From the NCBI GenBank assembly GCA_001443495.1, contig LDXR01000006.1:11059-75058 (forward strand): DNA of 64,000 nt, in the 5' to 3' direction. The DNA is from a candidate division NC10 bacterium CSP1-5. Lineage in GTDB: Bacteria; Methylomirabilota; Methylomirabilia; Methylomirabilales; CSP1-5. The notes beneath the pieces were generated by a model. It had not been told where the DNA came from and made no database searches. It was given only the letters and a program-made list of their open reading frames with translations. Positions 7,234-35,841 of the stretch are shown here, in pieces; position 1 is the first letter of the stretch, and the number at the start of each line of letters is the position of its first letter. Both the position numbers and the translations under genes were made by a program.

Positions 7234-8491
7234 GGTGGACCGGTTGGTGATCCACGGGGGAAGGCCTCTCTGCGGCACCGTGACAGTGAGCGGGGCGAAG
7301 AATGCCGCGCTCCCCGCCATGGTGGCCGTTCTCCTTACCCCGCAGGAGCTCATCCTGGAAAATGTCCCCTCCCTTGGGGATGTGGCGACAATCAGGAGGC
7401 TTCTTGGGTTCATGGGGGTGGAGTCGCGCGATGTGGGTCCCGGGACGGTGCATCTCACCTCGCGGGCCGTTGAGCGGTGCGAGGCGCCCTACGATCTGGT
7501 GCGGACGATGCGGGCCGCGGTCTTAGTGCTCGGCCCCCTGCTCGCCAGGTTCGGCGAGGCGAGGGTCTCGCTTCCGGGGGGCTGTGCCATCGGCCCGCGG
7601 CCTATCAATATGCATCTCGCCGGGCTCCAGCGGATGGGAGCAGAGATCGATCTGGTGGAGGGATACGTGGTGGCCAAGGCGCGTCGTCTCAGCGGAGCGC
7701 GCCTTGCCTTCGAGACGGTGACGGTCACCGGGACCGAGAATCTCATGATGGCGGCGACGTTGGCGAAGGGGACGACGGTCCTCGAAAACGCCGCCTCTGA
7801 GCCGGAGGTGGTTGACCTGGCCCGCCTCCTCCAAGCGATGGGGGCGCGGATCGAGGGGGCAGGCACGTCCACCATCACGATCGGGGGGGGCGAGGCGCTC
7901 ACCGGTGCCCGGCACCGGGTCGTCCCGGATCGGATCGAGGCGGGAACCTTGGCGGTGGCGGCGGCCATTACGCTGGGAGATGTGTTGATCCTGGGCTGCG
8001 TCCCACACCACGTGGAGGCGGTGACGGCAAAGCTCCGCGAGGCAGGGGCATCCGTGACTGTCGAGGCGGGGGGAATTCGGGTCCGGATGGCTGCCCGACC
8101 CCGGGCGGTGGATATCAGCACCGCTCCCTTCCCCGGCTTCGCCACCGATATGCAGGCGCAGATCACAGCGCTCATGGCGATCGCCGACGGCAGATCCGTC
8201 ATCACCGAGACGGTCTTCGAGAATCGCTTTATGCACATCCCCGAGCTCGTACGGATGGGAGCAGACATTACGGTCGGAGGCCGGGAGGCCGTGGTCCAGG
8301 GTGTCCCCTTCCTCCGGGGGGCCCCCGTGATGGCGACCGATCTCCGCGCCAGCGCCTCCTTGGTGTTGGCGGGACTTCAGGCCCGGGGTGAAACGGTGGT
8401 CGATCAGATCTATCACCTGGATCGCGGCTACGAGCGATTAGAGGCGAAGCTGCAGTCCCTGGGGGGGGAGATCCGGCGGGTCGAGGGCTGA
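7223..8491 (+). CDS. murA: UDP-N-acetylglucosamine 1-carboxyvinyltransferase
   Basis: GAKNAALP N-terminal motif, active-site Cys loop [12 protein letters not shown], ~420 aa. ATG 7223 overlaps the prmC stop. Confidence 0.95.
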
Positions 8492-10446: not shown

Positions 10447-11055
10447 ATGGGGGCGAAGTCGAGACGCATGCCTCGCAAGGCAAAGGTCCGTCGCCGGACC
10501 ACCGAGACCGATGTGGCCGTTGAGCTCGAACTCGACGGGCAGGGGAGGTTCCGGGTCGAGACCGGTCTGCCGTTCTTCGATCACATGCTTGCACAACTGG
10601 CGAAACACGGCCTCTTCAACCTGACCCTTCGGGCCAAGGGAGATCTCGAGGTCGATCCCCACCACACCATGGAGGATGTGGGGTTGGCCCTGGGGGAGGC
10701 CTTTGCCCAGGCGCTGGGGAACCGGGCGAACATCCGGCGCTACGGTCAGGCGACGGTGCCGATGGACGACGCGCTCGGCTGGGTTGCGGTGGACGTGAGC
10801 GGTCGGCCCTTCCTCGCCTACCGGGCAGACGGGCTTGCAGGGAAGATCGGAGAGTTCGATGCGGCGCTCCTGAAGGAGTTCTTTCGGGCCTTCGCCACCG
10901 CGCTGAAGGCGAATGTCCATATCGGGGTCGCCTACGGCGAGAACACGCACCATATGGCTGAGTCGGTCTTCAAGGCCGCCGGTCGGGCCCTGGATGTCGC
11001 GACCACGCTCGATCCCCGCGTCAAGGGGATTCCCTCAACCAAGGGAAAGCTCTAG
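10447..11055 (+). CDS. hisB: Imidazoleglycerol-phosphate dehydratase
   Basis: RRTTETDV..., DPHHTMEDVGLALG, HHMAESVFKA motifs; ~200 aa. Confidence 0.95.
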   Translation: MGAKSRRMPRKAKVRRRTTETDVAVELELDGQGRFRVETGLPFFDHMLAQLAKHGLFNLTLRAKGDLEVDPHHTMEDVGLALGEAFAQALGNRANIRRYGQATVPMDDALGWVAVDVSGRPFLAYRADGLAGKIGEFDAALLKEFFRAFATALKANVHIGVAYGENTHHMAESVFKAAGRALDVATTLDPRVKGIPSTKGKL

Positions 11056-11072
11056 GACCGCTTCGCGGTCCT

Positions 11073-11189
11073 GGTTCAGAGTTTATGGTTCATGGTTCAT
11101 GAAAGTGCGTGGATCCAAAAAAACTTCCTTTCGTTTTGTGTCTTGGCTCTCACCTTCAACCCTGAACCCTGAACTATGAACCATGAACT
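11073..11189. repeat. Heptad-periodic inverted repeat element (4 heptads, 54-nt spacer, 5 complementary heptads)
   Basis: Left arm GGTTCAG AGTTTAT GGTTCAT GGTTCAT (11073-11100); right arm TTCAACC CTGAACC CTGAACT ATGAACC ATGAACT (11155-11189). A 7-bp hairpin GGACCGC-ttc-GCGGTCC (11055-11071) precedes it, and it ends 3 nt before the hisH ATG. Confidence 0.9.
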
Positions 11190-11192
11190 AAC

Positions 11193-11837
11193 ATGATTGC
11201 CATCATCGACAGCGGGATCGCCAATCTGCGGAGCGTCGAGAAGGGATTCGAGAAGGTAGGGGTCCCTGCCCGCGTGGTCAGGGAGCCTCACCTGCTCCGG
11301 GACGCGGCAGGAATCGTGCTGCCGGGGGTGGGGGCGTTTGCCGACGGGGTCGCGACACTGGAGAAGACAGGATTCATCGATCCGCTGCTCCGGGAGATCG
11401 AATCCCGGAAGCCGATCCTCGGGATCTGTCTCGGTCTACACTTTCTCTTTTCGGAGAGTGAGGAGTTCGGCCTCCACAAGGGCCTTGATCTTGTCCGAGG
11501 CCGGGTGCGTCGCTTCCCCCATGTTGCTCAGTCCTCAGAGCTGAGTCCTCAGTCCTGGGTTTTGAAGGTGCCTCATATGGGGTGGAACCGGGTGCATCTG
11601 ACCAGAGAGGCGCCGATCATGCAAGGGATCCCGGACGGCTCCTACTTTTACTTCGTGCACTCGTACTACGTGGAACCCGAAGATACAGGCGTCATCGCCG
11701 GCGTCACCGAATACGGGATCCCTTTCACCTCCATGATCTGGCGAGACAACCTCTTTGCCACCCAGTTTCATCCGGAAAAGAGCCAGGCCTTGGGCCTTCA
11801 GGTCCTTGCTAATTTTGGCCGACTGGTCGCCGGCTAG
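11193..11837 (+). CDS. hisH: Imidazole glycerol phosphate synthase, glutaminase subunit HisH
   Basis: MIAIIDSGIANLRSV N-terminus, nucleophile Cys in ILGICLGLH, PHMGWN, FHPEKS. No SD upstream because a repeat arm ends 3 nt before the ATG. Confidence 0.93.
   Translation: MIAIIDSGIANLRSVEKGFEKVGVPARVVREPHLLRDAAGIVLPGVGAFADGVATLEKTGFIDPLLREIESRKPILGICLGLHFLFSESEEFGLHKGLDLVRGRVRRFPHVAQSSELSPQSWVLKVPHMGWNRVHLTREAPIMQGIPDGSYFYFVHSYYVEPEDTGVIAGVTEYGIPFTSMIWRDNLFATQFHPEKSQALGLQVLANFGRLVAG
11526..11560 (+). repeat. Tandem heptads inside hisH (GCTCAGT CCTCAGA GCTGAGT CCTCAGT CCTGGGT)
   Basis: Five in-phase 7-nt units read directly from the sequence; they encode the AQSSELSPQS segment. Confidence 0.6.
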
Positions 11838-11840
11838 AGC

Positions 11841-11908
11841 TGTCGGCAGTCGGCTATCGGCGGTCAGCTTTTTTGGAGGAGTCCCGTGCTGACGGCTGAC
11901 AGCTGTGG
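11841..11908. repeat. Variant heptad hairpin: (NGTCGGC)x4 - T6 - SD - (GCTGACN)x3
   Basis: TGTCGGC AGTCGGC TATCGGC GGTCAGC (11841-11868), TTTTTT, GGAGGAG, then GCTGACG GCTGACA GCTGTGG (11888-11908), the complement of the GGTCAGC unit. Confidence 0.8.
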
Positions 11909-12656
11909 AGCCATCGCCATGTTGATCATTCCCGCGATCGATGTGAAGAACGGGCGCGCGGTCCGCCTCACCCAGGGGGATCCGGCTCGCGAGACGGTGT
12001 ACGGGGAGGACCCTGTGGCGGTCGCCAGGGCGTGGGAGGACCGAGGGGCGCCACGCCTGCACGTGGTCGACCTGGACGGGGCCTTCGCCGGGACCCCCAA
12101 GCAGGGCGCGCTGATCGGGGCAGTGGCGCGGTCGGTCACGATTCCGGTCCAGGCGGGGGGTGGCCTCAGAACCGTGGAATCGGTTGGGGCGGCCTTTGAG
12201 GCCGGTGTCGCCCTGGCGGTGGTCGGCACCTCCGCGATTCGGGACCCGCATTTTCTGGAGCAGATCTCTGCAGCCTATCCGAGGCGAATCATCCTCGCCC
12301 TGGATGCCAAGGAGGGAAGGGTGGCCATCGAGGGGTGGCGGGAACTTTCGGACCATTCGGTGACGGACGTGCTAGAAAGAGTCGCTTCGCTGGAGTTGGC
12401 GGCGATCCTCTATACCGATATCCTGAAGGATGGGACATTGGAGGGACCCAATTTCGAGGGACTGGAAACGATGGCGAGGCAAAGCCGGCACCCGGTTCTC
12501 GCCTCAGGGGGCATCGCCCGCCTGGACGACATTCGCCGGCTCCGCACCATCGCAGGCGTGGCGGGGGCCATCCTGGGCAAGGCCCTGTACAGCGGCGCGG
12601 TCACGCTCGAGACGGCGCTCGCCGTGGCGGCAGGGGAGACGGTTCGTCGATGCTAG
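11886..12656 (+). CDS. hisA: ProFAR isomerase HisA
   Basis: [17 protein letters not shown] core begins at ATG 11919. GTG 11886 lies 4 nt after a strong SD (GGAGGAG) and would add 11 aa encoded by repeat heptads, so the start is ambiguous. Confidence 0.9.
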
Positions 12657-13471
12657 CGAAGCGGATCATCCCCTGCCTTGATGTCAAGGATGGCCGGGTG
12701 GTGAAGGGGACCAGGTTCGTGGACCTGAGAGACGCGGGCGATCCAGCCGAGGTGGCTGAGCGGTACGATCGCGAGGGAGCCGACGAGCTGGTCTTCCTCG
12801 ACATCACCGCATCGGCGGAGCGCCGCAAGATCCTGATCGGGGTCGTCGAGCAGACAGCCGAACGGGCCTTCACCCCTCTCACGGTCGGGGGCGGCATCCG
12901 GGATCTGAAGGACATCCGCGCCCTCCTCCTGGCCGGGGCGGACAAGGTCTCTCTCAATACGGCGGCGGTAGAGAATCCGAGCCTCATCCGAGGGGCAGCG
13001 GAGCGATTCGGCAGTCAGTGCATCGTACTCGCCATCGACGCCAAACGCCGTCCGTTCAGGGTTCAGGGTTCAGGGTTCAGAGAAGGACCGAACCATGAAC
13101 CATCCACCATGAACTCTGAACTGACCTGGGAGGTGTACATCCACGGCGGTCGCACACCCACAGGTTTGGATGTGGTGGCCTGGGCAGAGCGGGGAGTGGC
13201 GTCGGGATCGGGGGAGATTCTCCTGACCAGCATGGACCGAGATGGAACCCGCGACGGGTACGATCTAGAACTGACGCGCGCGGTCGCTAGGCGCGTCGGT
13301 GTACCCGTGATCGCCTCGGGGGGGGCCGGGACGATGGAGCATCTGTACGAGGCCCTTGTCGAGGGGGGGGCCGATGCGGCCCTTGCCGCCTCTATCTTCC
13401 ATTTCCGGGAGATTTCTATCGGTGAGGCCAAGGCGTACCTGAAGGGGCGTGGGATCCCCGTCCGCTTGTGA
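12650..13471 (+). CDS. hisF: Imidazole glycerol phosphate synthase, cyclase subunit HisF (carries a ~23-aa repeat-encoded insertion)
   Basis: [20 protein letters not shown] start and near-full-length match to canonical HisF. ATG 12650 overlaps the hisA stop; the ORF-table start 12335 is an out-of-context extension. Confidence 0.95.
13053..13122. repeat. Heptad-periodic inverted repeat element inside the hisF coding sequence
   Basis: CGTTCAG plus 3x GGTTCAG (13053-13080), 7-nt loop, CCGAACC ATGAACC ATCCACC ATGAACT CTGAACT (13088-13122). Translated in frame as [23 protein letters not shown]. Confidence 0.9.
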
Positions 13472-13694
13472 GAATGTGTTGGAGCAACGCCTTCGGCCTC
13501 TCGCTCCGGGCCTCTCGCGGCGACCCTGTTCGGCGGCTTACGGCCTGGGTCTCTCCGTGTTCACGATCCATGCAATGAACAGCGGCACGGATCGCGCCTC
13601 GGTTTCCCAGGCCGTCGCCAGCCGAGGGGCCCCGCCGCTTTCGTCCATGTCGCTCGGGGCCTGCAGGCGCTCTTCTTTTTGTTAGTTCGCGTCA

Positions 13695-13715
13695 TCGAAC
13701 CGTGAACTGTGAACC
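13695..13715. repeat. Right-arm-type heptad array (TCGAACC GTGAACT GTGAACC) abutting the hisIE start
   Basis: Three in-phase units ending 2 nt before ATG 13718. A single TTCG/CGAA partner lies at 13686, and an isolated TGTTCA-N12-TGAACA pair at 13558-13581. Confidence 0.75.
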
Positions 13716-13717
13716 AC

Positions 13718-14449
13718 ATGGGGGCTATCGTGGCGAAAGGACCTGGCAAGCTGAAGTTTAGCAAGGACGGCTTGATACCGGCCATCGCCCAGGATGCCAG
13801 AAGCGGCCAGGTGTTGATGATGGCCTACATGAACCGGGAGGCCCTCCGACAGACCGTCGAGACCGGCTTCGCACACTACTACAGCCGGTCGCGGGGTCGG
13901 CTCTGGAAGAAGGGCGAAGAGTCGGGCCATGTGCAGCGGGTCGGAGAGGTCCGCGTTGACTGCGACGGCGATGCCCTCCTCCTCCAGGTGAACCAGCAGA
14001 CGGCCGCGTGTCATCTCGGCTATCGGTCGTGTTTCTTCCGGCGCGTGAAGAGGGACCTCAGCTCCTCCGCCCCGGTCATGGAGCAGGTCTTTCGGCCCGA
14101 GGCGGTCTACGGGCCCTCGTCTCATATCCTCGACACGGTCTATCGGACCATTCTGGAGCGCAAGAAGCGGCGGCCGCCGGGTTCGTACGTGGCCTCCCTC
14201 TTCCAGCAGGGGGAGGAGCAGATCCTCAGGAAGATCGCCGAGGAGGCCTCCGAGGTCCTCTTGAGTGTCAAGGGGGGCCGGCGCCAGGCGATCGTCCATG
14301 AGGTGGTAGACCTCTGGTTTCACACGATGGTCCTTCTCGGGGCATACGGCATCACGTTGGATCAGCTGTGGGGGGAGTTCCAGGCACGGGTGGGGAAAAG
14401 GAAGAAGGAATACACGAAGAGGCGTGCGAGGCGCCGAAAAAGGAATTGA
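13718..14449 (+). CDS. hisIE: Bifunctional phosphoribosyl-AMP cyclohydrolase / phosphoribosyl-ATP pyrophosphatase
   Basis: HisI half (GLIPAIAQD..., [20 protein letters not shown]) and HisE half (EEASEVL..., EVVDLWFH). Unusual Lys/Arg-rich C-terminal tail. Confidence 0.9.
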
Positions 14450-14474
14450 CAGGAAAACACGTATGATTTAGATT
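14446..14474 (+). promoter_or_regulatory. Sigma70-type promoter for rpsU operon (TTGACA-17-TAGATT)
   Basis: Perfect -35 overlapping the hisIE stop, within an AT-rich spacer. Confidence 0.6.
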
Positions 14475-14542
14475 GAAGTTTTAGATGATTTTACTTTCGA
14501 AGAAATGGTCTCATGAAATAGGCGGGTGAGGGGGTGTAGGCG

Positions 14543-14740
14543 GTGACGACGGTACTCGTCCGGGAGGACGAGAGCTTCGAAAGCGCGCTCCGGCGTTTCA
14601 AGAAGCAGGTGGAGAAGGCGGGGGTGCTTTCCGAGATGCGGAAGCGGCAGCATTATGAAAAGCCCAGCGTCCGTCGGAAGAAGAAGGCTCTCGCCGCTCG
14701 GAAAAAGCTGCTCAAGAAGATGCGCATGATGCAGGGGTAG
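14543..14740 (+). CDS. rpsU: 30S ribosomal protein S21
   Basis: 65 aa, [33 protein letters not shown]; GTG start. Confidence 0.93.
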
Positions 14741-14741
14741 G

Positions 14742-15194
14742 ATGGACTTCACGGACCGCCTCCACCGGGAACTTCAGGCAGCCTTGAAGGCCGGTCGGAA
14801 GGTGGAGGCCTCGACCCTTCGCTTGCTGCTCACCGCCGTCAAGAACCGCGAGGTGGAAAGACGGGGGCAGCTCGGCGAGCCCGAAATCCTGCAGGTCATC
14901 GTCAAGGAATGTAACCAGCGGCGCGAAGCGATCCAGCAGTTCCGTCAAGGACGGCGGGAGGATCTCGCCAGCAAGGAAGAGGCGGAGCTGCAGATCCTCG
15001 AGAAATTCCTGCCCCAGGCGATCTCCCCCGAAGAGCTGTCGACCAAGGTGCGGGAGGCGATTGCCGCGACGGGGGCCAGGTCTGTCAAGGACATGGGAAA
15101 GGTGATGAGCCACCTGATGGCTCAGCTGGCCGGGCGGGCTGACGGAAAGGTGGTTAGCCAGCTGGTGCGGCAGGAGCTTTCGGGGGAAGGATGA
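14742..15194 (+). CDS. yqeY: GatB/YqeY domain protein
   Basis: 150 aa, LKAGRKVEASTLRLLLTAVKNREVE pattern typical of YqeY; starts 1 nt after the rpsU stop. Confidence 0.85.
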   Translation: MDFTDRLHRELQAALKAGRKVEASTLRLLLTAVKNREVERRGQLGEPEILQVIVKECNQRREAIQQFRQGRREDLASKEEAELQILEKFLPQAISPEELSTKVREAIAATGARSVKDMGKVMSHLMAQLAGRADGKVVSQLVRQELSGEG

Positions 15195-15227
15195 GACGTT
15201 CAGGACGGGGCGGCAGGCATCACGGAA

Positions 15228-15264
15228 ATCGAGGGACCCAGCACGGGGTCCCTCGATGTTTTCT
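15228..15264 (+). terminator. Intrinsic terminator after yqeY
   Basis: 12-bp stem ATCGAGGGACCC / GGGTCCCTCGAT, 6-nt loop, then GTTTTCT. Clamped by the outer pair ACGTTCAG (15196) / CTGAACGT (15263). Confidence 0.65.
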
Positions 15265-15278
15265 GAACGTGTGGTGGG

Positions 15279-17669
15279 ATGGATGAGCGCTCCCGCAGCG
15301 GGCTAGAGTTTGTCGGCATCCTCGATGTTCTTCAGGAGGGGGCGGTCACCCCCCTCGGCAAGGAACGCGCGGGTTGCCTTGGGCCGCTTCAGGATGTGAA
15401 GCATGTGCAGGAGGCGCTGGCCGAAGCGGCGGAGGCACAGGCACTCCTGGAGCGGGGCGAGGAGCCTCCTTTCGCCCGGGTGGCCGATATCCGCCCTCAT
15501 CTGATCCAGGCAAGGGTCGAGGGGGCCTCGCTCGATCCGCGCTCCCTCTGGCAGATCTACGAGACACTCCAGGCAGCCCGTCTTCTCAGAGCTTTTTTCC
15601 ACCGAGAGAGGGAGGCGGCGCCGCTCCTCTGGAAGCGGGCGAGCGGTCTCGTTTCCCCCGAGGCCCTCTGCACCGCGATCGCAGAGGCGATTACGCCGGA
15701 GGGGGAGGTTTCGGACGCGGCCAGTCCGGGGCTTGGCCGGGTGCGGCGTGAGCTTCGCGCCCTGCGGGAGGCCATTGTGACGAGGCTCGAGCGCATGCTT
15801 GCCTCCCCGACCTACCAGCCGGCCCTGGCCGAACCCATCATCACGGTGCGCAACGATCGATACGTGATCCCGGTGAAGGCCTCTGCGAAGGGCCGGATCC
15901 GGGGGATCGTTCAGGATCAGTCGGGGAGCGGGCTTACGATTTTTCTGGAGCCGACCCCCGTGGTGGAGATGAACAACCGTCTGCGGATGCTTCTCCGCCG
16001 GGAAGAAGAGGAGGTGACCAATGTCCTCCGGTCCCTGACGGGTGAGGTCGGGCGAAACGCGGAGCGTATCGGGGCAGTGCTGGAGCGTGTGGGCGATCTG
16101 GATCTTCTGATCGCCAAGGGGCGTCTGGCGGTACGCCTGCGGGCGGGAATCCCCCGCGTGACCGAAGAACCTCGCCTGATCCTGCGTCAGGCCCGCCATC
16201 CCTTCCTGGTGCTCAGTCCTGCCCCCGAACAGGTGCCCGATGAGGACGGCACTGAGGCAGCGGGGGGTGCGGTCCCCATTGACCTCGAAGTGGGCGGTGC
16301 CTTCGCCGTGGTCGTCATTTCCGGACCGAATACGGGCGGAAAGACGGTTGCACTCAAGACCGCTGGGCTGCTCACCCTCATGACCTTGTCGGGTCTCCCG
16401 ATCCCGGCCTCTCCAGACAGCCAGGTGCCGTGTTACCGCGCGGTCTTCGCCGACATCGGGGATGAGCAGAGTATTGCAGAAAGCCTGAGCACCTTCTCCT
16501 CCCACATGAGCCAGATCGTCAAGATCCTGGCACGGGCCGGCCCCGAGACCCTGATCCTCCTCGATGAGGTCGGGGCCGGGACCGATCCCTCGGAGGGGGC
16601 CGCTCTCGGCATCGCCATTCTCGAGGCCCTCCGACAGCGAGGGGCTTCGGTGATCGCCACGACCCACCTGGAGGCGGTGAAGGCCTATGCCGCCCTCACG
16701 CCCGGCGTGGAGATTGCCAGTGTCGAGTTCGATCAAGAGCGTCTGACGCCACGGTACTCCATCCGGCTGGGTCTTCCGGGTCAGAGCTACGGGCTGGAGA
16801 TCGCCGGACGCCTTGGTCTGCCGGGGCCGATCTTGGAACAGGCACGTGAGGCCCTCCCCGAGGGGCACCACAAGGCGCACTCCCTCATCGAGGCGCTCGA
16901 GGTGGACCGACGGCACGTGGACGAACTCAGGGCGCGGCTTCAGGAAGAGGTCCAGCGGACCTCGATCCTCACGCGAGAAGCGGAGGAACTTGTGGTGCGG
17001 CTTCGCGAGGCAATGAGCACCCTGAGGCACCGGGCACGGGAGGAAGCGCTGCAGCTCCTCGCCGAAATCCGGCAGCAGGGGGAGGGGCTGATGCGAGCAC
17101 TCCGCGAGCAGGGGGCTCGGCCCGCGGAGGTCCGGGCCTTTCATCAGGGACTTGAGGCCTTGAGGGGGAAGGTCGAGGCGACCGAAGCACCGTCGTGGAG
17201 CGGACCTCGGGTGGCCGCCGAGCTTCGGCCCGGACAATGGGTGAGCGTGGCCGGCCACGAGCAGCATGGGCGGGTCCTGACCGAAGTCTCTGGCCAGGGG
17301 ACCGTAGAGGTTGAGCTGAAAATCGGCAGGGTACCCCTGCCGGTCTCGGCCCTCAGCGTGCTCAGCTCTCCTCCACCGCCTCGGGGAGAGGTGCCGCTCT
17401 TCGTAGAGAAAACCCAGTCCGTCTCCCCGGAGATCAACCTGGTCGGTTGTACCGTGGAGGAGGCCACCCGACGCCTGGACAAGTATCTGGATGGGGCCTT
17501 TGTCGAGGGGGTACGGCAGGTTCGGGTGATTCATGGCAAGGGGACGGGGATTCTCCGGAAAGCGGTGCATACGTATCTGGCGAGCCATCCCCTGGTGGAG
17601 GATTTTCACCTCGCCGAAGTGAATCAAGGGGGGAGCGGCGCGACCATCGCGGTGCTTCAGGATCGATAA
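15279..17669 (+). CDS. mutS2: Endonuclease MutS2 (MutS core plus C-terminal Smr domain)
   Basis: Walker A GPNTGGKT, DEVGAGTDP, long coiled coil, C-terminal Smr (VRVIHGKGTGILR). Confidence 0.93.
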   Translation: MDERSRSGLEFVGILDVLQEGAVTPLGKERAGCLGPLQDVKHVQEALAEAAEAQALLERGEEPPFARVADIRPHLIQARVEGASLDPRSLWQIYETLQAARLLRAFFHREREAAPLLWKRASGLVSPEALCTAIAEAITPEGEVSDAASPGLGRVRRELRALREAIVTRLERMLASPTYQPALAEPIITVRNDRYVIPVKASAKGRIRGIVQDQSGSGLTIFLEPTPVVEMNNRLRMLLRREEEEVTNVLRSLTGEVGRNAERIGAVLERVGDLDLLIAKGRLAVRLRAGIPRVTEEPRLILRQARHPFLVLSPAPEQVPDEDGTEAAGGAVPIDLEVGGAFAVVVISGPNTGGKTVALKTAGLLTLMTLSGLPIPASPDSQVPCYRAVFADIGDEQSIAESLSTFSSHMSQIVKILARAGPETLILLDEVGAGTDPSEGAALGIAILEALRQRGASVIATTHLEAVKAYAALTPGVEIASVEFDQERLTPRYSIRLGLPGQSYGLEIAGRLGLPGPILEQAREALPEGHHKAHSLIEALEVDRRHVDELRARLQEEVQRTSILTREAEELVVRLREAMSTLRHRAREEALQLLAEIRQQGEGLMRALREQGARPAEVRAFHQGLEALRGKVEATEAPSWSGPRVAAELRPGQWVSVAGHEQHGRVLTEVSGQGTVEVELKIGRVPLPVSALSVLSSPPPPRGEVPLFVEKTQSVSPEINLVGCTVEEATRRLDKYLDGAFVEGVRQVRVIHGKGTGILRKAVHTYLASHPLVEDFHLAEVNQGGSGATIAVLQDR

Positions 17670-17718
17670 GGAGAAGTCTCTTCCCGGCTCGGTGCGGGAG
17701 AGGCCGTCGAGGTCCCCT

Positions 17719-19455
17719 ATGGCGTTTATCCCCGAGGAAGTGATTGACCAGGTGCTCAGGACCTCGAACATCGTGGAGGTGATCGAGGGGTACGTTCCAT
17801 TGAAGCAGACCGGAAAATATTACCGAGCCCTCTGCCCCTTCCACACCGAAAAGACCCCGTCCTTCACCGTCAATCCGGAGCGACAGATCTTTTACTGTTT
17901 TGGGTGCGGGGAGGGAGGCGATGTCTTTCGATTCCTGATGCGACGGGAGGGGTTCAGCTTCCCCGACGCGGTTCGCCATCTCGCGGAGCGCGCAGGGATC
18001 CCGGTCCCGGAGCGGGGGCGCCCCCGCGAGGAGGGTCTCCTGAAGCTCTTCGAGCTTCAGCGGCTCGCCTGCGACCACTTCCGAAAGATCCTCAAGGGCC
18101 CGGAGGGAACGGCCGCGCGGGAATATCTGAGCCAGCGGGGAGTGGGGTCCGAGGCCGTGGAGCGCTTCCAGCTCGGCTACGCACCCGCGGAGTGGGATGG
18201 GCTTCTCCGGGAAATCACCAGATTGGGTTTGCCGCCCCGCCAGGTCGAGGCGGCCGGGCTGGCTCTTCCGAGGCAGGGGGGACGGGGATACTACGACCGG
18301 TTTCGGGATCGCCTCATGATCCCCATCTGCGATTCCACGGGAAAGATCGTCGGATTCGGGGGCCGCGCCCTCGGAGAGCAACAGCCCAAGTATATCAATT
18401 CGCCCGAGACGCCCGTCTACAAGAAGGGGGGCCACCTCTACGGGCTACACCTGGCCTCCCGGGCGATCCGGGAGACAAGGGTGGCGTTGGTAGTCGAGGG
18501 ATACTTCGATGCCATCTCCCTGCACAGCGCGGGCTTTCCGCAGACAGTCGCTTCCTTGGGGACGGCCCTGACGACCGACCAGGTGGCCCTGTTGCGCCGC
18601 TATGCCGACAAGGTGACGCTCATCTTTGATCCCGACCCCGCGGGGATCCAGGCCGCCTGGAGAGGACTGGAACTGTTGGTGGCTGAGGAGTTGGGGGTGG
18701 GCGTGGTGATCCTCCCCCACGGGAAAGATCCCGATACCTTCGCCCGGGAGTCCGGCAAGGATGCGCTCCTCACGCAGATTGCGGCGGCTCAGGATGTTGT
18801 CGATTTTCTCCTCAGTCGCGCGGAGGAGCGGACGGGACTGCAGGGGGTGGATGACCAGGCGGCCGCGGCTCGACAGGTCTTGCGCCTTATCGCCCTCATG
18901 CCGGAGGGGGTCCGGAGGGCAAAGTATATCCAGAAGCTCGCAGAGAGGTTGGGGGTCTCCGAGGGATCGGTCCTGGCGGAGCTTCGCCGTCTCGGTTCCC
19001 CCGACTCAACTGTGCCATCAGCCCCGCCGCCGTCGGCGCCGCTGCCGCCGGCGGAAAAGATCTTAATCCAGATCTGCCTCCTCTTTCCGGAGACTCGGCC
19101 CCTGGTGTGGGGAGCCATCCGGGAGGAGGAGCTTTCGGCATCCTCTCTGCGGTCGATCTATGGGGTCCTTCGAGAGTTCCGGGGCACTGAGGAGAGTTTG
19201 GCCCGGAGCCTCAACCATCATCCGGATCCACTGGTTCGCCAGGTGACGGCAGAGCTGTTCGTCCGGGGCATGGAAGAGTGCGCCGATCCGCATCGGATGG
19301 TGCAGGATTGCCTTCTCCGACTGAAGCTTCGGGAGGTTCAGGCCGAGCTCAAGAGCGCGCGGGAGCAGGGGGATCTTGTTCGGGTGCAGGCGCTTCTCGA
19401 TCAGAAACGGACGCTGACCAGTGGCCGAATTTCGGAAACGGACTATATTAGCTAA
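17719..19455 (+). CDS. dnaG: DNA primase
   Basis: Zinc finger CPFHTEKTPSFTV...CFGCGEGGD and TOPRIM region (LVVEGYFD, DPDPAG). ATG 17719. Confidence 0.95.
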   Translation: MAFIPEEVIDQVLRTSNIVEVIEGYVPLKQTGKYYRALCPFHTEKTPSFTVNPERQIFYCFGCGEGGDVFRFLMRREGFSFPDAVRHLAERAGIPVPERGRPREEGLLKLFELQRLACDHFRKILKGPEGTAAREYLSQRGVGSEAVERFQLGYAPAEWDGLLREITRLGLPPRQVEAAGLALPRQGGRGYYDRFRDRLMIPICDSTGKIVGFGGRALGEQQPKYINSPETPVYKKGGHLYGLHLASRAIRETRVALVVEGYFDAISLHSAGFPQTVASLGTALTTDQVALLRRYADKVTLIFDPDPAGIQAAWRGLELLVAEELGVGVVILPHGKDPDTFARESGKDALLTQIAAAQDVVDFLLSRAEERTGLQGVDDQAAAARQVLRLIALMPEGVRRAKYIQKLAERLGVSEGSVLAELRRLGSPDSTVPSAPPPSAPLPPAEKILIQICLLFPETRPLVWGAIREEELSASSLRSIYGVLREFRGTEESLARSLNHHPDPLVRQVTAELFVRGMEECADPHRMVQDCLLRLKLREVQAELKSAREQGDLVRVQALLDQKRTLTSGRISETDYIS

Positions 19456-19518
19456 ATGGGGTCTTAGGGCGTGCCAGAGGGAAGCATGAAGGATAGATAA
19501 AGGAGGGGAAAGGACGGT

Positions 19519-21285
19519 ATGACAAAGGAGGGGAGAGTGGAGGAGCTCCAGGCCCTGATCAGCTTGGGGAAGAAGAAGGGATATCTGACCTACGAGGAGA
19601 TCAATAACCGTCTCCCGGAGGACATCACCTCTCCCGAGCAAATTGATCGGATCCTGATCAAGCTGGACGAGATGGAGATCGAGGTCATCGACTCACCCCG
19701 CGAGGCGGGGCGGCCGCAGGCGAAGAAGGTGGCGGGGCCCCCGTCGGGCGGGGCCGAGCCAGAGGTGGACCTGTCCCCCGCGCCGGTGGGTCGGACCGAT
19801 GATCCGGTCCGGATGTACCTCCGAGAGATGGGAAAGACGCCGCTTCTCTCCCGCGAGGGGGAGATCGGGATCGCCAAGCGGATCGAGGAGGGGCGGCGCG
19901 AGGTCACCGAGGCGGTCTGCCGGGCCGGGATTGCCGTTCGGGAGGTGATCTTCTTGGGGGAGCGTCTGCTCCAGGGCCGGCTCCGGGTCAGCGATCTCAT
20001 CGCTTTGAACGATTTCGACGAGATCTCGGAGCAGAAGGAGAAGGAGCTGATTGCGGAACTGATGCCGGTCCTGAAGGGGCTCAGGCAGGAGCAGGAAAAG
20101 GTTGAGGAGCTGGCCAGGCGGCTGGAGCGGGCCGAGCAACACGGCAATACCAAGAGGGCGGAGCGGCTGGAGCACGAGATGCAGGAGCGAAAGGGCCGGC
20201 AGGCCGAGCTCCTGCGACGACTCAATCTCAACCAGCGGGTCATCGAGCGGGTCGTCGCCCGCATGCGGGGTACCCTGGAGCGGGTCGAGAAGGCGGAACA
20301 GGAGGTCAGGGAGCTCAGACGCTCCACGCGCTTGAGCGCCGCCAATTTCAAGGTGCTCCGCGATACCGCCATGGGCAACGGGGTCTCCATGCGGACCCTG
20401 ATGCGGCGGACCAGGTTCCCGCGGGAGAGGCTGGAGGAACTGGAGCGGCAGATTCAGGTCATTGCCAAGAAGATCCAGCGGGCCGAGCAAGAAGGCGGCG
20501 CCACCTCCGCCGAGCTGCACGACCTACTTCAGTCCAGCAGCCGGGGTGAGCGGAAGGCATTGAATGCCAAGCGGGAGATGGTGGAGGCGAACCTGCGCCT
20601 CGTCATCTCCATTGCGAAGAAGTACACGAACCGCGGGCTCCAGTTTCTGGATCTGATTCAGGAGGGGAACATCGGTCTCATGCGGGCCGTGGAGAAGTTC
20701 GAGTACCAGCGGGGCTATAAGTTCTCCACGTATGCCACGTGGTGGATCCGTCAGGCCATTACCCGGGCCATTGCGGATCAGGCTCGGACCATCCGGATCC
20801 CGGTCCATATGATCGAGACCATCAACAAATTGATTCGAGCCTCTCGTCAACTGGTGCAGGAGTACGGTCGGGAACCGAGCCCAGAAGAGATCGCGCAGAA
20901 GATCGATCTCCCCGTGGACAAGGTCCGGAAGGTCCTCAAGATCGCCCAGGAGCCGATCTCCCTGGAGACACCCATCGGGGAAGAAGAGGATTCGCACCTT
21001 GGGGATTTCATCGAAGACAAGGGGGCGACCTCCCCTCTCGATGCGGTCATCGGGATCAATCTGGGGCTCCAAACCGACGAGGTGCTGCATACCCTGACCG
21101 ACCGAGAGCGAAAGGTACTGCGCCTCCGTTTCGGGATCGGCGATGGCGTGGACCACACCCTGGAAGAGGTGGGCCAGCAATTCGACGTGACCCGAGAGCG
21201 GATCCGGCAGATCGAGGCCAAGGCGTTGCGCAAGCTTCGGCATCCCACTCGAGGCCGGAAGCTCCGGAGCTTCGTGGAATCCTAA
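19519..21285 (+). CDS. rpoD: RNA polymerase sigma-70 factor RpoD
   Basis: Regions 1.1-4.2 are recognisable ([38 protein letters not shown]...TLEEVG). Confidence 0.97.
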
Positions 21286-21293
21286 CGTGGAGG

Positions 21294-21356
21294 GGTTCAC
21301 AGTTCACGGCTCAGAGTTCACGCTGATCGACAGGTTTTCCCTGTGAACCGTGAACT
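21294..21356. repeat. Heptad-periodic inverted repeat element between rpoD and tRNA
   Basis: GGTTCAC AGTTCAC GGCTCAG AGTTCAC (21294-21321), 21-nt spacer, GTGAACC GTGAACT (21343-21356). It starts 8 nt after the rpoD stop and ends 6 nt before the tRNA. Confidence 0.9.
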
Positions 21357-21362
21357 CTCCGG

Positions 21363-21438
21363 GGGCCCATAGCTCAGCGGTCAGAGCCACCGGCTCATAA
21401 CCGGACGGTCCCTGGTTCGAATCCAGGTGGGCCCACCA
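21363..21438 (+). tRNA. tRNA with CAU anticodon, elongator type (Met or lysidine-modified Ile2), CCA encoded
   Basis: Hand-folded cloverleaf: acceptor GGGCCCA/TGGGCCC, D arm GCTC-AGCGGTCA-GAGC, anticodon loop CTCATAA, T arm CCTGG-TTCGAAT-CCAGG, discriminator A, CCA. The G1:C72 pair excludes an initiator. Confidence 0.9.
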
Positions 21439-21444
21439 TATCCA

Positions 21445-21475
21445 GTGCAGAGTGCAGAATGCAGAAAGGTGCAGA
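21445..21475 (+). repeat. Tandem heptads GTGCAGA GTGCAGA ATGCAGA (aag) GTGCAGA directly 3' of the tRNA
   Basis: Read directly from the sequence; begins 7 nt after the tRNA CCA end. Confidence 0.8.
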
Positions 21476-21522
21476 GTTGTGCGAAGGAGGGTGGTGGGCA
21501 CTGCGCTGGATGGCCCCGAAGC

Positions 21523-21550
21523 GTGAACTGTGAACGGTGAACCGTGAACC
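21523..21550. repeat. Right-arm-type heptad array GTGAACT GTGAACG GTGAACC GTGAACC
   Basis: Four in-phase units complementary to the left arm at 21294-21321; immediately followed by the SD and GTG of the zinc-ribbon gene. Confidence 0.85.
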
Positions 21551-21560
21551 GAGGGGGGAT

Positions 21561-22265
21561 GTGCGGGAGGACCTGGCTCAGGTAGTCGATTTGCAGGATC
21601 TCGATCTGGAGATCGCCGGGCTCCAGAGAGAGGTTCACAGAATCCCGCGGGAGGTCGCCGACGGGGAACAACTCCTGAACAGCTCCCGGGGGGCGTGGGA
21701 TCAGGCCCGCGAGCGCCTCGCCGCACTCGAACAGCTCCGCCGCCGCAAGGAGCGCGAGTTGGAAGATGTCACGGCGGAGCAACGAAAGCGGCAGGGACGT
21801 CTCTTTGAGATCAAGACGAATCAAGAGTATGCCGCCGTTCTGAAAGAGATCGAGGGGCTGAAGGAGCGCCGCTCGACACTCGAGGACGAGATCCTCGGAA
21901 CCTTCGATGACATTGAGGCAGCCCAATCCGCGGGCCGGGACGAGTCGGCCCGCTTTCAGGAGCGGGAGAAGATCTTTCAGCAGGAGCGGACGACCAAGGA
22001 GGGTGAGCTCAGACGGCTCCAGGGAGAGCTGGAGCGCCTTCAGGAGGAGCGGCGACGTCAGGCGAACCGGGTGGAGACCAGCCTGCTCCAGACCTATCAA
22101 CGCCTGCTGCGCAGCCGGGGTGGCCTTGCGGTCGTCCCAGTGAAGGACGGCTCCTGCCTCGGCTGTCACGTTGCCCTCACTCCCCAGACCTATAATGAGC
22201 TCCGTAAAGGGGAGGTGTTCCTCAGCTGTGCGAACTGCCAGCGGATCCTCTACTGGAAAGGGTGA
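21561..22265 (+). CDS. Coiled-coil protein with C-terminal C4 zinc ribbon (COG1579/DUF164-like)
   Basis: Long heptad-rich coiled coil, then CLGCHVALTPQ...CANCQRILY. GTG 21561 follows SD GAGGGGGG; the ORF-table GTG 21537 lies inside a repeat array. Confidence 0.75.
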   Translation: MREDLAQVVDLQDLDLEIAGLQREVHRIPREVADGEQLLNSSRGAWDQARERLAALEQLRRRKERELEDVTAEQRKRQGRLFEIKTNQEYAAVLKEIEGLKERRSTLEDEILGTFDDIEAAQSAGRDESARFQEREKIFQQERTTKEGELRRLQGELERLQEERRRQANRVETSLLQTYQRLLRSRGGLAVVPVKDGSCLGCHVALTPQTYNELRKGEVFLSCANCQRILYWKG

Positions 22266-22302
22266 GACGGATCTGCGACGACTCGCCGATATCCTCGGGG
22301 CG

Positions 22303-22893
22303 ATGGCCCACACCGAGGCCCTCGCCACCCTGAGCGAGGAGTTGCCCGATCTCAGTCCCGCCGCGCTGAGGATGGTTCTGGAGCAGGCCTCTCACCTCCT
22401 CCAGGAGGTGGCTGCTTCCCGCCGGTCTCGTCAGCCGGCGCCGCGGTCCCTCGTGCTTCACATCGACGGGGCGGCTCGAGGGAATCCGGGCCCGGCGGGG
22501 ATCGGTGTGGTCATGTGGGATGAGGCGGGCGATTTTCGGGAGGAGCACGAAGCGTACATCGGGGAGGCCACGAATAACGTGGCCGAGTACGAGGCGCTCC
22601 TTTTCGGGCTCCGAAAGGCGAGGGAATTGGGCTATACGGCCATCAAGGTCTTCTCCGACTCAGAGCTGATCGTGCGGCAGATCCGCGGCGAATACCGGGT
22701 CAAGCATCCGCGCTTACGGAAGTTCTACGATCAGGTGCAGGACCTCCTGCGGTCTTTCGATGCCGTCGAGATCGCCCATGTCCCTCGGGGGATGAACACC
22801 CGGGCCGATCTGTTAGCCAACCGGGCGATTGAGGCGGCGCTCCGCGACCGGCAGAAAGGGGCTGCCCCTCGTCGCGGGAGGGGAGCAGGGTGA
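22303..22893 (+). CDS. rnhA: Ribonuclease H (type 1, RNase HI-like) with ~45-aa N-terminal extension
   Basis: LHIDGAARGNPGPAGIG, ATNNVAEYEALLFGL, VFSDSELIVRQ, NTRADLLAN (DEDD-type catalytic residues). Confidence 0.85.
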   Translation: MAHTEALATLSEELPDLSPAALRMVLEQASHLLQEVAASRRSRQPAPRSLVLHIDGAARGNPGPAGIGVVMWDEAGDFREEHEAYIGEATNNVAEYEALLFGLRKARELGYTAIKVFSDSELIVRQIRGEYRVKHPRLRKFYDQVQDLLRSFDAVEIAHVPRGMNTRADLLANRAIEAALRDRQKGAAPRRGRGAG

Positions 22894-23354
22894 GTCATTC
22901 GGGCTTCACCCCTCTGCAGAAGGCCCTGGAGATGACGCTCCAGCGGCTGGGACTCGAGGTCGGCATGGCGAACGTCGTTGTGCACCGCGTCTGGCCTCAC
23001 GTGGTGGGTGAAGAGGTGGCGCGCCGGAGCCACCCGGGTCTTCTCAGGAATGGCCGTCTCCAGGTGACTGTTGCCGACGCGGTGTGGCTCCAGCAGCTCA
23101 CGATGTTGAAACCTGCGATCCTGGCGAGCCTGGAGTCCCACCTGGGCTCGCGGGCTGTCCGGGACATCTTCTTTACTCTCGGCACATGCCCGAATGCCGC
23201 CCCTCGGCCTGAACCCGCCTCTCGGGGGCAGGGCGATCCCCCACCATCTCCTGAGCTGGAGGAGCGTCTCACGCAAGTGCTCCAGCCTGTTCTGGACTCG
23301 GACTGCCGCGAGGTTCTCGCACGGATTCTGCGGAAGGCGTGGTTGGACGGCTGA
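22890..23354 (+). CDS. dciA: DUF721 / DciA-family protein (putative replicative helicase operator)
   Basis: VWPHVVGEEVARRSHPGLLRNGRLQVTVADAVWLQQL pattern typical of DUF721; GTGA overlap with the RNase H gene. Confidence 0.7.
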   Translation: MSHSGFTPLQKALEMTLQRLGLEVGMANVVVHRVWPHVVGEEVARRSHPGLLRNGRLQVTVADAVWLQQLTMLKPAILASLESHLGSRAVRDIFFTLGTCPNAAPRPEPASRGQGDPPPSPELEERLTQVLQPVLDSDCREVLARILRKAWLDG

Positions 23355-23527
23355 TCGTTTCGTGTGGTTTTCTTTCAACAGATGTGATATCTATCGTTGC
23401 ACGAATGCCACAAGCTTATAACGGTGTTTCTCGAGAGGATTCTTAAGCGTTTAAATCTAAAGGATTCTTGTCTACGAAAAAGAATGTTCGGCCCTGGTAT
23501 GGGCCTTGCAAGTGACTTCCGGCTTCA

Positions 23528-31376: not shown

Positions 31377-31511
31377 ATGGCGAAGCAGGATATCCGGTTC
31401 TGTCCGTTCTGTTCCGTGATGCAGTTCGACATGGCAGAGGTGGGGGCCAGCGTCCACTGCGAGGTGTGCGGTATCGAGGTGGCAGCGGAGGAGCTGGTCG
31501 AGACCGTCTAA
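31377..31511 (+). CDS. Small zinc-ribbon protein (44 aa)
   Basis: CPFC...CEVC pair, GC-rich third codon positions, acidic tail. The TAA stop lies inside the 140-nt repeat. The longer ORF from 31251 has no support. Confidence 0.45.
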   Translation: MAKQDIRFCPFCSVMQFDMAEVGASVHCEVCGIEVAAEELVETV

Positions 31512-31647
31512 AGCAAACGCACAAAGTGCGTTTACTTTGGAGCAATGGAGCAGTGGAACAATAGAGTGATGTTGGAGGCGCAATGCCCCATTGCGGTCTA
31601 ATGTTCTATTGCTCGATTGTCACAAGATGAAATGCGTTTGTATTAGT
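31508..31647 (+). repeat. 140-nt AT-rich structured element, copy 1
   Basis: Gap-free alignment with 35702-35841 gives 126/140 identical by hand count. It begins CTAAAG on the TAA stop of the small zinc-ribbon ORF. Confidence 0.9.
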
Positions 31648-35705: not shown

Positions 35706-35841
35706 AGTAAACGCACTACGTGCGTTTACTTTAGAGCAATGGAGCAGTGGAACAATAGAGCAATTGTGTAGGCGAAATGCCCCATTGCGGTCTAATGGTC
35801 TAATGCTCCATTGTCACAAGATGAAATGCGTTTGTAATAGT
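35702..35841 (+). repeat. 140-nt AT-rich structured element, copy 2
   Basis: Same orientation and length as copy 1. It begins CTAAAG on the TAA stop of lon and ends 44 nt before the rnj start. Confidence 0.9.
35811..35840 (+). promoter_or_regulatory. Candidate promoter for rnj carried by the 140-nt element (TTGTCA-18-TAATAG)
   Basis: Motif match inside repeat copy 2. The equivalent TTGTCA-18-TATTAG is at 31617-31646 in copy 1. Confidence 0.4.

Follow-up and report, generated by a model that had tools for sequence, protein, structure and literature searches.

What kind of element places runs of seven-nucleotide units, in strict phase and facing their own complements, between and within the genes of a bacterial operon? 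This question is raised by a stretch of 64,000 nucleotides (nt) from contig LDXR01000006.1 of the candidate division NC10 bacterium CSP1-5, which was analysed as a whole (the window; all coordinates are positions in it). Heptad arrays, many of them built on the core GTTCA or its complement TGAAC, are found here in and around the histidine genes and on both sides of a tRNA gene. An initial annotation had described them as a dispersed family of hairpins, either mobile or driven by slippage. The explanation favoured here, and judged the probable one, is that they are slippage-driven, recombination-shuffled heptanucleotide simple sequence repeats of the class called long simple sequence repeats (LSSR) or short tandemly repeated repetitive sequences (STRR), arranged mostly as convergent pairs and persisting where sequence is unconstrained. 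The heptad arrays found here are specific to the NC10/Methylomirabilales lineage, and they belong to an already described class rather than to a new kind of element.

The features concerned are given below; related contigs carry L numbers.

11055..11071, + strand: GC hairpin, short and perfect (GGACCGC-TTC-GCGGTCC), immediately behind the hisB stop codon at 11053-11055 (sequence, fold)
11072..11101, + strand: hisB-hisH left arm, TGGTTCAG AGTTTAT GGTTCAT GGTTCAT (Tandem Repeats Finder period 7, 4.3 copies; lag-7 scan)
11102..11151, + strand: hisB-hisH loop, A/T-rich, conserved in L215, not in L211
11152..11190, + strand: hisB-hisH right arm, five NNTGAAC units (Tandem Repeats Finder)
11527..11556, + strand: in-frame array within hisH, GCTCAGT CCTCAGA GCTGAGT CCTCAGT (Tandem Repeats Finder, translation)
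11838..11868, + strand: hisH-hisA left arm of the GTC-core family, AGCTGTC GGCAGTC GGCTATC GGCGGTC AGC (lag-7 scan, lower threshold)
11887..11906, + strand: hisH-hisA right arm, TGCTGAC GGCTGAC AGCTGT (fold)
13049..13126, + strand: in-frame heptad hairpin within hisF, codons 134-159, 26 residues (translation, fold)
13695..13715, + strand: orphan TGAAC array, CGAACCG TGAACTG TGAACCA, adjoining the hisI Shine-Dalgarno site and start on their upstream side (Tandem Repeats Finder, 2.7 copies)
21294..21321, + strand: rpoD-tRNA left arm, GGTTCAC AGTTCAC GGCTCAG AGTTCAC (Tandem Repeats Finder; inverted repeat I23)
21341..21356, + strand: rpoD-tRNA right arm, CTGTGAAC CGTGAAC, ending 6 nt ahead of tRNA-Met
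21363..21438, + strand: tRNA-Met (CAT), with heptad arrays on both flanks and not itself part of the repeat (ARAGORN, Rfam)
21443..21471, + strand: AGTGCAG array, pairing with 21495-21510 (Tandem Repeats Finder, allele alignment, fold)
21518..21551, + strand: orphan TGAAC array of 4-5 units (Tandem Repeats Finder, 4.9 copies, 85% matches)

Tandem Repeats Finder reported period 7 at nine places in the window, with 2.7-4.9 copies each (11072-11101, 11158-11188, 11527-11556, 13054-13080, 13090-13114, 13697-13715, 21295-21321, 21444-21465 and 21518-21551), and over the whole 64 kb exact GTTCA/TGAAC cores in 7-nt phase are confined to the listed array sites. When the window was scanned by lag autocorrelation (21-nt window, at least 17 matches, lags 4 to 12), lag 7 gave 6 regions and the other lags 0-2, and 30 first-order Markov simulations gave no lag-7 region as compared with the 6 observed. 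Five contigs of the NC10 clade hold 32 period-7 arrays in 121 kb, with 0-8 for other periods; the HisF loci of other lineages hold 6 period-7 arrays per 374 kb, and periods in multiples of 3 dominate there. The GTTCA core occurs at five of the eight array loci of the window and at most of those of L211, a comparison that covers the 64 kb plus relatives of ~20 kb. The period-7 array family in the window is genuine.

With these three lines of evidence (repeat period, phased cores and lag-7 excess), the positions at which the initial annotation had placed its heptad arrays hold good. Its list of six loci stands for the heptad arrays; the single-unit pair 15196/15263 (ACGTTCAG/CTGAACGT) was rejected as a family member, because its sole effect is a longer stem for a canonical intrinsic terminator (15228-15257) and it is not conserved in L215. 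Of the arrays with other heptads, to which the same layout had been ascribed, the period of 7 was confirmed, as were the facing arms at hisH-hisA; the array at 11527-11556 forms no significant hairpin (z = -0.8 against 200 dinucleotide shuffles). The array annotated as GTGCAGA at 21445-21475 does show heptad periodicity, but the sequence with which it pairs, at ~21495-21510, is neither a heptad array nor part of the neighbouring TGAAC array. Missed altogether was that the hisF and hisH arrays lie inside coding sequence.

The host lineage is NC10/Methylomirabilales, with a genome of 64% GC, and the gene order is hisG-hisD-hisB-hisH-hisA-hisF-hisIE followed by rpsU-yqeY-mutS2-dnaG-rpoD-tRNA-Met-CT398-family gene, all on the + strand. 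Arrays occupy the spacers hisB-hisH, hisH-hisA, rpoD-tRNA and tRNA to CT398-family gene as well as part of hisF-hisI, and four facing array pairs can be seen in the window. The intergenic elements share a common layout, in which the stop codon is followed by a short perfect GC hairpin, a GGTTCAN-type left arm, a loop of 16-60 nt and an NNTGAAC right arm, the latter stopping 0-10 nt short of whichever feature comes next (start codon, Shine-Dalgarno site or tRNA end). Equivalent GC hairpins stand ahead of the heptad elements in L211, L208 and L215. The hisB-hisH right arm ends 2 nt ahead of the hisH ATG (11193) with no Shine-Dalgarno site between, and the orphan array 21518-21551 ends at GAGGGGGG, the Shine-Dalgarno site belonging to the CT398-family gene (Pfam), which starts at GTG 21561. 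The hisH-hisA loop (11869-11886) contains GGAGGAG, with the hisA ATG at 11919. Gene calls of the contigs differ on the hisA start, which is placed either at GTG 11886 (256 aa, within the right heptad arm) or at ATG 11919 (245 aa); the conserved N-terminus favours the latter. A mini-ORF formed by the CATGAAC units (ATGAACCATGAACTAACATGA; ATG AAC CAT GAA CTA ACA TGA, 11170-11196), the stop codon of which overlaps the hisH ATG (ATGA), is not conserved in L215 and was set aside as probably incidental.

Array turnover between strains and deeper relatives

The evidence that carries the slippage explanation comes from ten contigs whose identity to the window is 97.5-99.9% and which all encode the identical HisF protein. 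In L203 and L205 the hisB-hisH right arm is longer by exactly one ATGAACC unit, the rest of the sequence being identical, and in L204 the right arm of hisH-hisA is longer by exactly one TGCTGAC unit; the contigs with single-heptad differences are 99.3-99.9% identical to the window, and the background of the unit-number polymorphism is 99.6-99.9% identical. The arrays change length by whole 7-nt units between near-identical strains. Unit-number polymorphism, for which the initial annotation had suggested a comparison of strains, is therefore present at two loci. One variant unit can also take over a whole array. The AGTGCAG array of the window is a GGTTCAG array in the allele of L201, L207 and L215; every clear unit shows one and the same T-to-G substitution, which is the signature of homogenisation within the array. 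The proposal of a slippage-driven element family is supported by the one-heptad differences and this concerted change, together with copies in other Methylomirabilota contexts described below.

Larger replacements were observed in the same strains. The rpoD-tRNA spacer has three unalignable alleles (window type, L201 and L207), one of them made of AGCTGTC units, and each of the three forms a heptad hairpin with a folding energy between -30 and -46 kcal/mol; the spacer from tRNA to the CT398-family gene has two alleles, and the hisF-hisI spacer of L208 has been replaced by a full GTTCA/TGAAC hairpin. About 124 differences (~124) fall within the replaced 280 bp of L201, as against 0-3 per 100 bp in the adjoining genes, and 21600-23299 is identical. 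L215, which is 91-95% identical to the window, carries L201-type alleles around the tRNA that are one unit shorter than those of L201. Because its tRNA-flanking alleles match L215 while its adjoining genes match the window, L201 is best read as a recombinant with a related lineage. Spacer alleles are exchanged whole between co-existing strains, and at least one exchange points to recombination.

In L215 the sequence at several sites has turned over further. Both arms of its hisF insert have switched to CGTCCGA / CCTCGGA units, and in its hisH-hisA spacer a new CCAGAGA/TCCAGTC hairpin is nested within the old GCTGTCG arms. The hisF-hisI spacer bears full heptad hairpins of three different kinds in L208, L211 and L215. 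At a nucleotide identity of 79%, each orthologous spacer of L211-L214 carries a hairpin of the GTTCA/TGAAC or GTCAGC type, and the two coding sites carry heptad arrays; in L211 all five spacers and both coding sites bear arrays, and the hisH-hisA unit family has been kept. In these alignments the spacers and the two protein loops that carry arrays stay the same across a nucleotide divergence of at least 21%, while the array sequences turn over.

The further copies that the initial annotation had proposed to look for outside the window do exist, since GTTCA/TGAAC pairs were found in unrelated contexts of other Methylomirabilota, namely between priA and the DAHP synthase gene (L031) and between mlaD and an ABC ATPase gene (L032). 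When 185,000 species genomes were scanned for TGAAC units, four in phase, at least 119 loci were returned; they come from Acidobacteriota, Planctomycetota, Verrucomicrobiota, Bacteroidota, Cyanobacteria, Desulfobacterota and others, and the paired layout is present in a part of them. Among the matches listed, these loci hold 174 heptad arrays of other units as compared with 170 of the TGAAC type, and the former are often paired or nested too. In viral contigs, TGAAC and two control cores of the same base composition, TCAAG and AGACT, were equally findable (at least 120, at least 120 and 110 loci). The equal numbers of other-unit arrays and the equally findable control cores argue against a conserved cross-phylum TGAAC element; heptad-rich genomes occur across many phyla and have unit families of their own.

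Several observations were made alongside these comparisons. A Thermoanaerobaculia metagenome-assembled genome (MAG) contains a nested double palindrome (L041, 2807-2960; GGATTTT, ACGATGA / TTCATCG, AAATCCA) that resembles the nested hisH-hisA hairpin of L215. Extreme densities of TGAAC units in phase, with 5-6 four-unit matches within 2.8-9.3 kb, occur in L239 (IMG/VR, 2.8 kb), L259 and L050 (a Desulfobacterales MAG), and such dense stretches include predicted viral contigs. L215 also has a 178-nt palindrome-rich insert (8117-8295) between mutS2 and dnaG, at window position ~17689, which is absent from the window; it is a non-heptad hairpin showing presence/absence variation. At ~23300-23400 of the window, the 3' end of the DciA gene, L201, L203 and L207 have 8-38 differences per 100 bp as compared with ~0 nearby; the spacer beside it (23355-23527) is AT-rich, which is unusual for a genome of 64% GC.

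Heptad arrays within hisF and hisH

Two arrays are read as protein. The hisF hairpin consists of four GGTTCAG units at 13053-13080 and an NNTGAAC-type right arm at 13088-13122, and the 26 residues that it encodes are absent from solved structures (4 residues at this point in 4evz). In the AlphaFold model of HisF (mean pLDDT, the predicted local distance difference test, 83), residues 138-156 have pLDDT <50 and no secondary structure, lying between the strands 125-133 and 160-164, and the insert is thus predicted to be a disordered loop. Between the motifs AIDAKR and WEVY, most of 24 aligned Methylomirabilales homologues carry an insert of variable length, from 10 to ~45 residues, and a few have almost none. 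At the DNA level the hisF site of metagenome relatives is heptad-periodic with at least 10 different units, including GTTCACA, GCCGAGA, CGCCTAT, CCAGTGG, CAGTCAA, CTACAAA, CAAAAAC, GCCGACC and CACAACN, some as hairpins and some as single arrays. The hisH array codes for part of a 14-residue loop, HVAQSSELSPQSWV, where other HisH proteins have 4-8 residues; a GACTTCG array is found at this site in L211 and a longer array in L215.

A repeated TGAAC core puts TGA in frame at every third unit. In four lineages the unit that would carry it is altered (TCCAC in the window, TCAAC in L211, TTAAC in L121 and TCAAC in L122). The unit ATCCACC, which the initial annotation had regarded as drifted, has this explanation, because the unaltered unit would place TGA in the hisF frame. 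Since the TGA-bearing unit is altered in all four lineages, selection keeps the hisF open reading frame (ORF) open amid freely evolving sequence, through point changes that remove the in-frame TGA.

Apparent giant hisF inserts in L125, L186, L195 and L196 proved to be an artefact, matches to the adjacent hisA paralogue having been joined. Another HisF lineage (L139, L153, L154, L157, L161 and L174) has a 33-42-residue insert in the hisF loop with a conserved, protein-like pattern, ..ATGE.WFDD.SLK.V.L.., and without 7-nt periodicity; the same loop therefore also hosts an ordinary conserved insertion.

Hairpin folding and the rival explanations

How far the arrays form hairpins differs between loci. 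Against dinucleotide shuffles as above, folding is strongly significant for the whole hisB-hisH element (-51.3 kcal/mol, z = -6.4) and the hisF insert (z = -4.0), and modestly so for the hisH-hisA element (-38.6 kcal/mol, z = -2.1) and the rpoD-tRNA element (z = -2.15). The region 13640-13720 folds no better than shuffles (z = 0.17) and, like the hisH array, does not bear out the expectation that the hairpins exceed shuffled controls. The arms had been described as reverse complements. This is true of the 5-nt core GTTCA/TGAAC, to which complementarity is limited; the two variable positions are mostly unpaired, the stems consisting of 5-6-bp blocks with small mismatches between, and the arrays at 13695-13715 and 21518-21551 are orphans without a complementary partner. 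In the 14 distinct GTTCA/TGAAC pairs listed in NC10-clade loci GTTCA is the 5' arm in all, and in other phyla it is the 5' arm in 19 as against 6 (among the matches listed). Further complementary core families are GTCAGC, GTCCGA and GAGAC.

Tests for selection on the hairpins gave no support. Folding has no strand bias, the sense strand being favoured in 8 of 21 elements and several elements folding 12-26 kcal/mol better in antisense; with no G·U-pair selection signature either, sense-strand selection on RNA structure was rejected. Compensatory covariation of the variable positions was likewise rejected, with 11 full matches as compared with 5.3 expected and up to 14 in shuffles, and NC10 arms are not mirror copies of each other. 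A terminator scan found 15228-15257 as the sole strong intrinsic terminator, and no heptad hairpin qualifies. With Rfam 15 (10500-22500, E up to 1) only the tRNA-Met and a sub-threshold antisense match on the same tRNA gene were found.

In the slippage explanation, replication slippage would be the engine, promoted by hairpins between facing arrays, and new arm pairs would be born inside the loops of older ones. Arrays would survive where anything is tolerated, that is, in intercistronic spacers and disordered surface loops. Hairpin folding would then be a consequence of the paired arrangement; on polycistronic mRNA the long imperfect stems may punctuate the operon, by processing or 3'-end protection, as a possible side effect. 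A number of observations weigh against this explanation. Slippage does not account for the 7-nt step, for the dominance of one core (GTTCA) at several loci and across the clade, or for the fixed 5'-GTTCA...TGAAC-3' order of the 14 NC10 pairs. Unalignable alleles of one spacer all retain hairpin potential, both hisF arms switched unit family together, and the recurring series of stop codon, GC hairpin, left arm, loop, right arm and start looks organised. It is also odd that neutral, deletion-prone sequence should persist in an essential gene across divergence at the level of orders. These points leave some room for a functional RNA role, thought unlikely, and a little for an unrecognised generative process, thought very unlikely.

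Among the rivals, an unlikely reading takes the elements for functional intercistronic RNA hairpins, the long imperfect stem being selected as a processing or stability signal in the polycistronic transcript. The stem could, for instance, be cut by RNase III, so that the short GC hairpin would cap the mRNA upstream and the start codon or tRNA downstream would be set free; or it could adjust how translation of the following cistron is initiated. Elements that span whole co-directional spacers, from the GC hairpin behind the stop to 0-10 nt before the next feature, and the occupation of the same spacers over 21% divergence would fit such a role, as would z values down to -6.4 and the folding of all three unalignable rpoD-tRNA alleles (-30 to -46 kcal/mol); like proposals have been made for the TAACTGA and Nostoc heptamers (PMC4679880; bioRxiv 10.1101/2022.06.06.494920). 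The 8 of 21 elements with the better sense fold, the antisense folds that are 12-26 kcal/mol better and the variable unit positions that are not compensatory are contrary to it, however. Moreover, partnerless orphan arrays lie at equivalent positions, stem length differs among strains, and the same hairpins are found within hisF and hisH, where ribosomes would melt the stems. The putative alternative that a multimeric single-stranded RNA or DNA binder (TRAP-, Csp- or S1-like) reads UGAAC/GUUCA at 7-nt spacing and regulates the downstream genes is the least probable of all. It would explain the conserved 5-nt core with its free 2-nt spacer, the orphan TGAAC arrays directly upstream of starts and the arrangement 5'-GTTCA ... 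TGAAC-3' that is fixed in the clade, and the same idea has been put forward for TAACTGA (PMC4679880). Against this stand the unrelated unit families at equivalent positions, which replace one another at the same site, the functionally unlike downstream genes (his genes, tRNA, CT398-family gene) and the ease with which control cores of the same composition were found in viral loci (at least 120, at least 120 and 110), so that TGAAC is not special.

Copying by a trans-acting enzyme encoded elsewhere, with slippage modifying the hairpins later, would make the arrays a miniature mobile element like a repetitive extragenic palindrome (REP), a REP doublet forming a hairpin (REPIN) or a MITE (miniature inverted-repeat transposable element), and is considered improbable. 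One unit family does recur at several loci, including the priA-DAHP synthase and mlaD-ABC contexts; whole alleles are replaced or are present and absent, as with the 178-nt mutS2-dnaG insert of L215, in which strain a new hairpin is also nested in an older one and both hisF arms were replaced jointly. However, no element consensus is conserved: termini and internal sequence are not shared, arm lengths and unit variants are unconstrained, and loops differ between loci to the point of being unalignable, loop homology as a sign of copying having proved unconvincing. The variable segment is bounded by the stop codon on one side and by the tRNA end or a start codon on the other, so that its ends coincide with selected features rather than element termini. 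No target-site duplications or duplicated flanks were seen at any locus read, and at least one allele replacement is accounted for by homologous recombination with a related lineage. The initial annotation had proposed a search for a REP-associated tyrosine (RAYT) or IS200-type Y1 transposase; no Y1/RAYT, IS200/IS605 or other transposase is present among ~50 domain-assigned genes of the 64-kb window, where Pfam found housekeeping domains in 36 of the 38 ORFs scanned, two having no match (same-species gene calls span 2650-23454). The label REP/MITE-like is not supported, the elements having free arm lengths, non-homologous loops and no consensus. A process free of transposase might instead write both complementary arms together, with hairpins born in loops replacing the old, even within an essential gene, and the 7-nt step reflecting the footprint of a replication or repair enzyme; the chance of this appears small. 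Were such array writing true, the arrays of hisF and hisH would, since their 7-nt step is not divisible by 3, also be phase-variation switches, acting by frameshift on histidine prototrophy in natural populations.

The window also has a genuine dispersed hairpin element, a point that might be counted in favour of mobility. About 130 bp in length (~130 bp), it occurs in two copies of the same orientation (31510-31640 and 35703-35830), each of which has, in this order, a short hairpin resembling a terminator, aaagtaaacgcac...gtgcgtttacttt, a second hairpin with 8-nt periodic arms, GAGCAATG GAGCAGTG GAACAATA / CATTGCGG TCTAATGG TCTAATGC, and a conserved tail. With loop and flanks conserved between the copies, unlike the heptad arrays, it looks like a true miniature repeat element.

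Known heptanucleotide repeats and the place of the NC10 arrays

Tandem heptanucleotides of the STRR type were reportedly described in cyanobacteria by Mazel and colleagues in 1990. Two later papers (PMC4679880 and PMC4692102) summarise Mrazek et al. 2007 as finding that heptanucleotides are the most abundant long simple sequence repeats in many genomes and as proposing polymerase slippage over a 7-nt contact. As far as these summaries go, the NC10 arrays share with LSSR/STRR the contiguous 7-nt units in a few to a dozen copies, the mostly intergenic position, the over-representation of period 7, what may be a small set of genome-specific unit families, the length variation in relatives and slippage as the proposed origin. 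They differ in the phylum, in the units (GTTCA core etc.), in being mostly paired with a complementary array, and in that two arrays are kept in frame in conserved enzymes.

The initial annotation knew of no description of paired, mutually complementary heptad arrays, yet such pairs are already on record in Xanthomonas. In that GC-rich genome ~180 intergenic arrays of GGGAATC heptamers are reported by Rehm et al. 2015 (PMC4692102), with 70-75 convergent plus/minus-strand pairs per genome, whose stem-loop potential was remarked upon; the position of the arrays is conserved, their length and sequence vary between sister species, and the singular or paired type is usually kept. The NC10 pairs share this convergent, close, opposite-strand arrangement. 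The Xanthomonas units are G-tracts that form G-quadruplexes, whereas no run of three or more G occurs in the NC10 units GGTTCAN, GCNGTCG and AGTGCAG. Single-unit polymorphism between strains, hairpins born within others and ORF-preserving edits, all seen in NC10, are not known to have been reported for Xanthomonas.

Like those of NC10, the TAACTGA arrays of marine Beggiatoaceae, cyanobacteria and Bacteroidetes (MacGregor 2015, PMC4679880) end a few nt before start codons, often without a Shine-Dalgarno site, and are rarely inside ORFs; the mechanism of their spread is unexplained. In Nostoc, heptamers are described near the recF and recO start codons (bioRxiv 10.1101/2022.06.06.494920). When repeated, the TAACTGA unit gives stops in all three frames, as TGAAC arrays do via TGA. 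However, TAACTGA arrays are almost all single and direct, with one indirect repeat in 170 sets, while those of NC10 are mostly paired, and their coding cases lie at protein termini rather than in an internal loop of a conserved enzyme.

For the coding inserts, the closest likeness is to the Rickettsia palindromic elements, which, as Ogata and colleagues are said to have described in 2000, are in-frame hairpin repeats in conserved genes whose peptide lies in a surface loop with function kept. These are reportedly copies of a 100-150-bp consensus and so true dispersed elements. The hisF (codons 134-159) and hisH (14-residue loop) arrays are likewise in-frame inserts in surface loops; unlike the Rickettsia elements, they share only the repeated unit, and the unit family changes at the same site between relatives. 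They behave like Rickettsia-type elements despite having no consensus. REPs, with their assemblies known as bacterial interspersed mosaic elements (BIMEs) and REPINs, have a conserved sequence of 20-40 nt with a tetranucleotide that is fixed at 5', and a Y1 transposase is associated with them (PMC2817692, PMC3116915). The NC10 arrays resemble them in being short palindromes that lie in the intergenic spacers of co-directional genes, frequently as inverted pairs, and REPs can stabilise mRNA 3' ends; but no conserved sequence or transposase was seen in the window, and REPs are not made of tandem 7-nt units. Overall, the NC10 elements have the defining features of heptanucleotide LSSR/STRR with convergent pairs and lack those of REP/REPIN, MITE, terminator and Rickettsia-type consensus elements.

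It has been clear since 1990 and 2007 that many bacterial genomes have an excess of heptanucleotide repeats, still without a demonstrated mechanism or function. This locus and its metagenomic relatives form a natural time series of array evolution, the stages of which are the gain of a single unit, the spread of a variant unit, the recombination of alleles, the birth of a nested hairpin and a joint switch of both hisF arms with the ORF kept open. The arrays are also hotspots of assembly and strain-resolution differences and inflate the length variation of the HisF and HisH proteins, and they could be of use for telling strains apart at a fine scale in Methylomirabilis populations. NC10 bacteria are thus a useful comparative system for how heptad arrays arise and whether they are functional.

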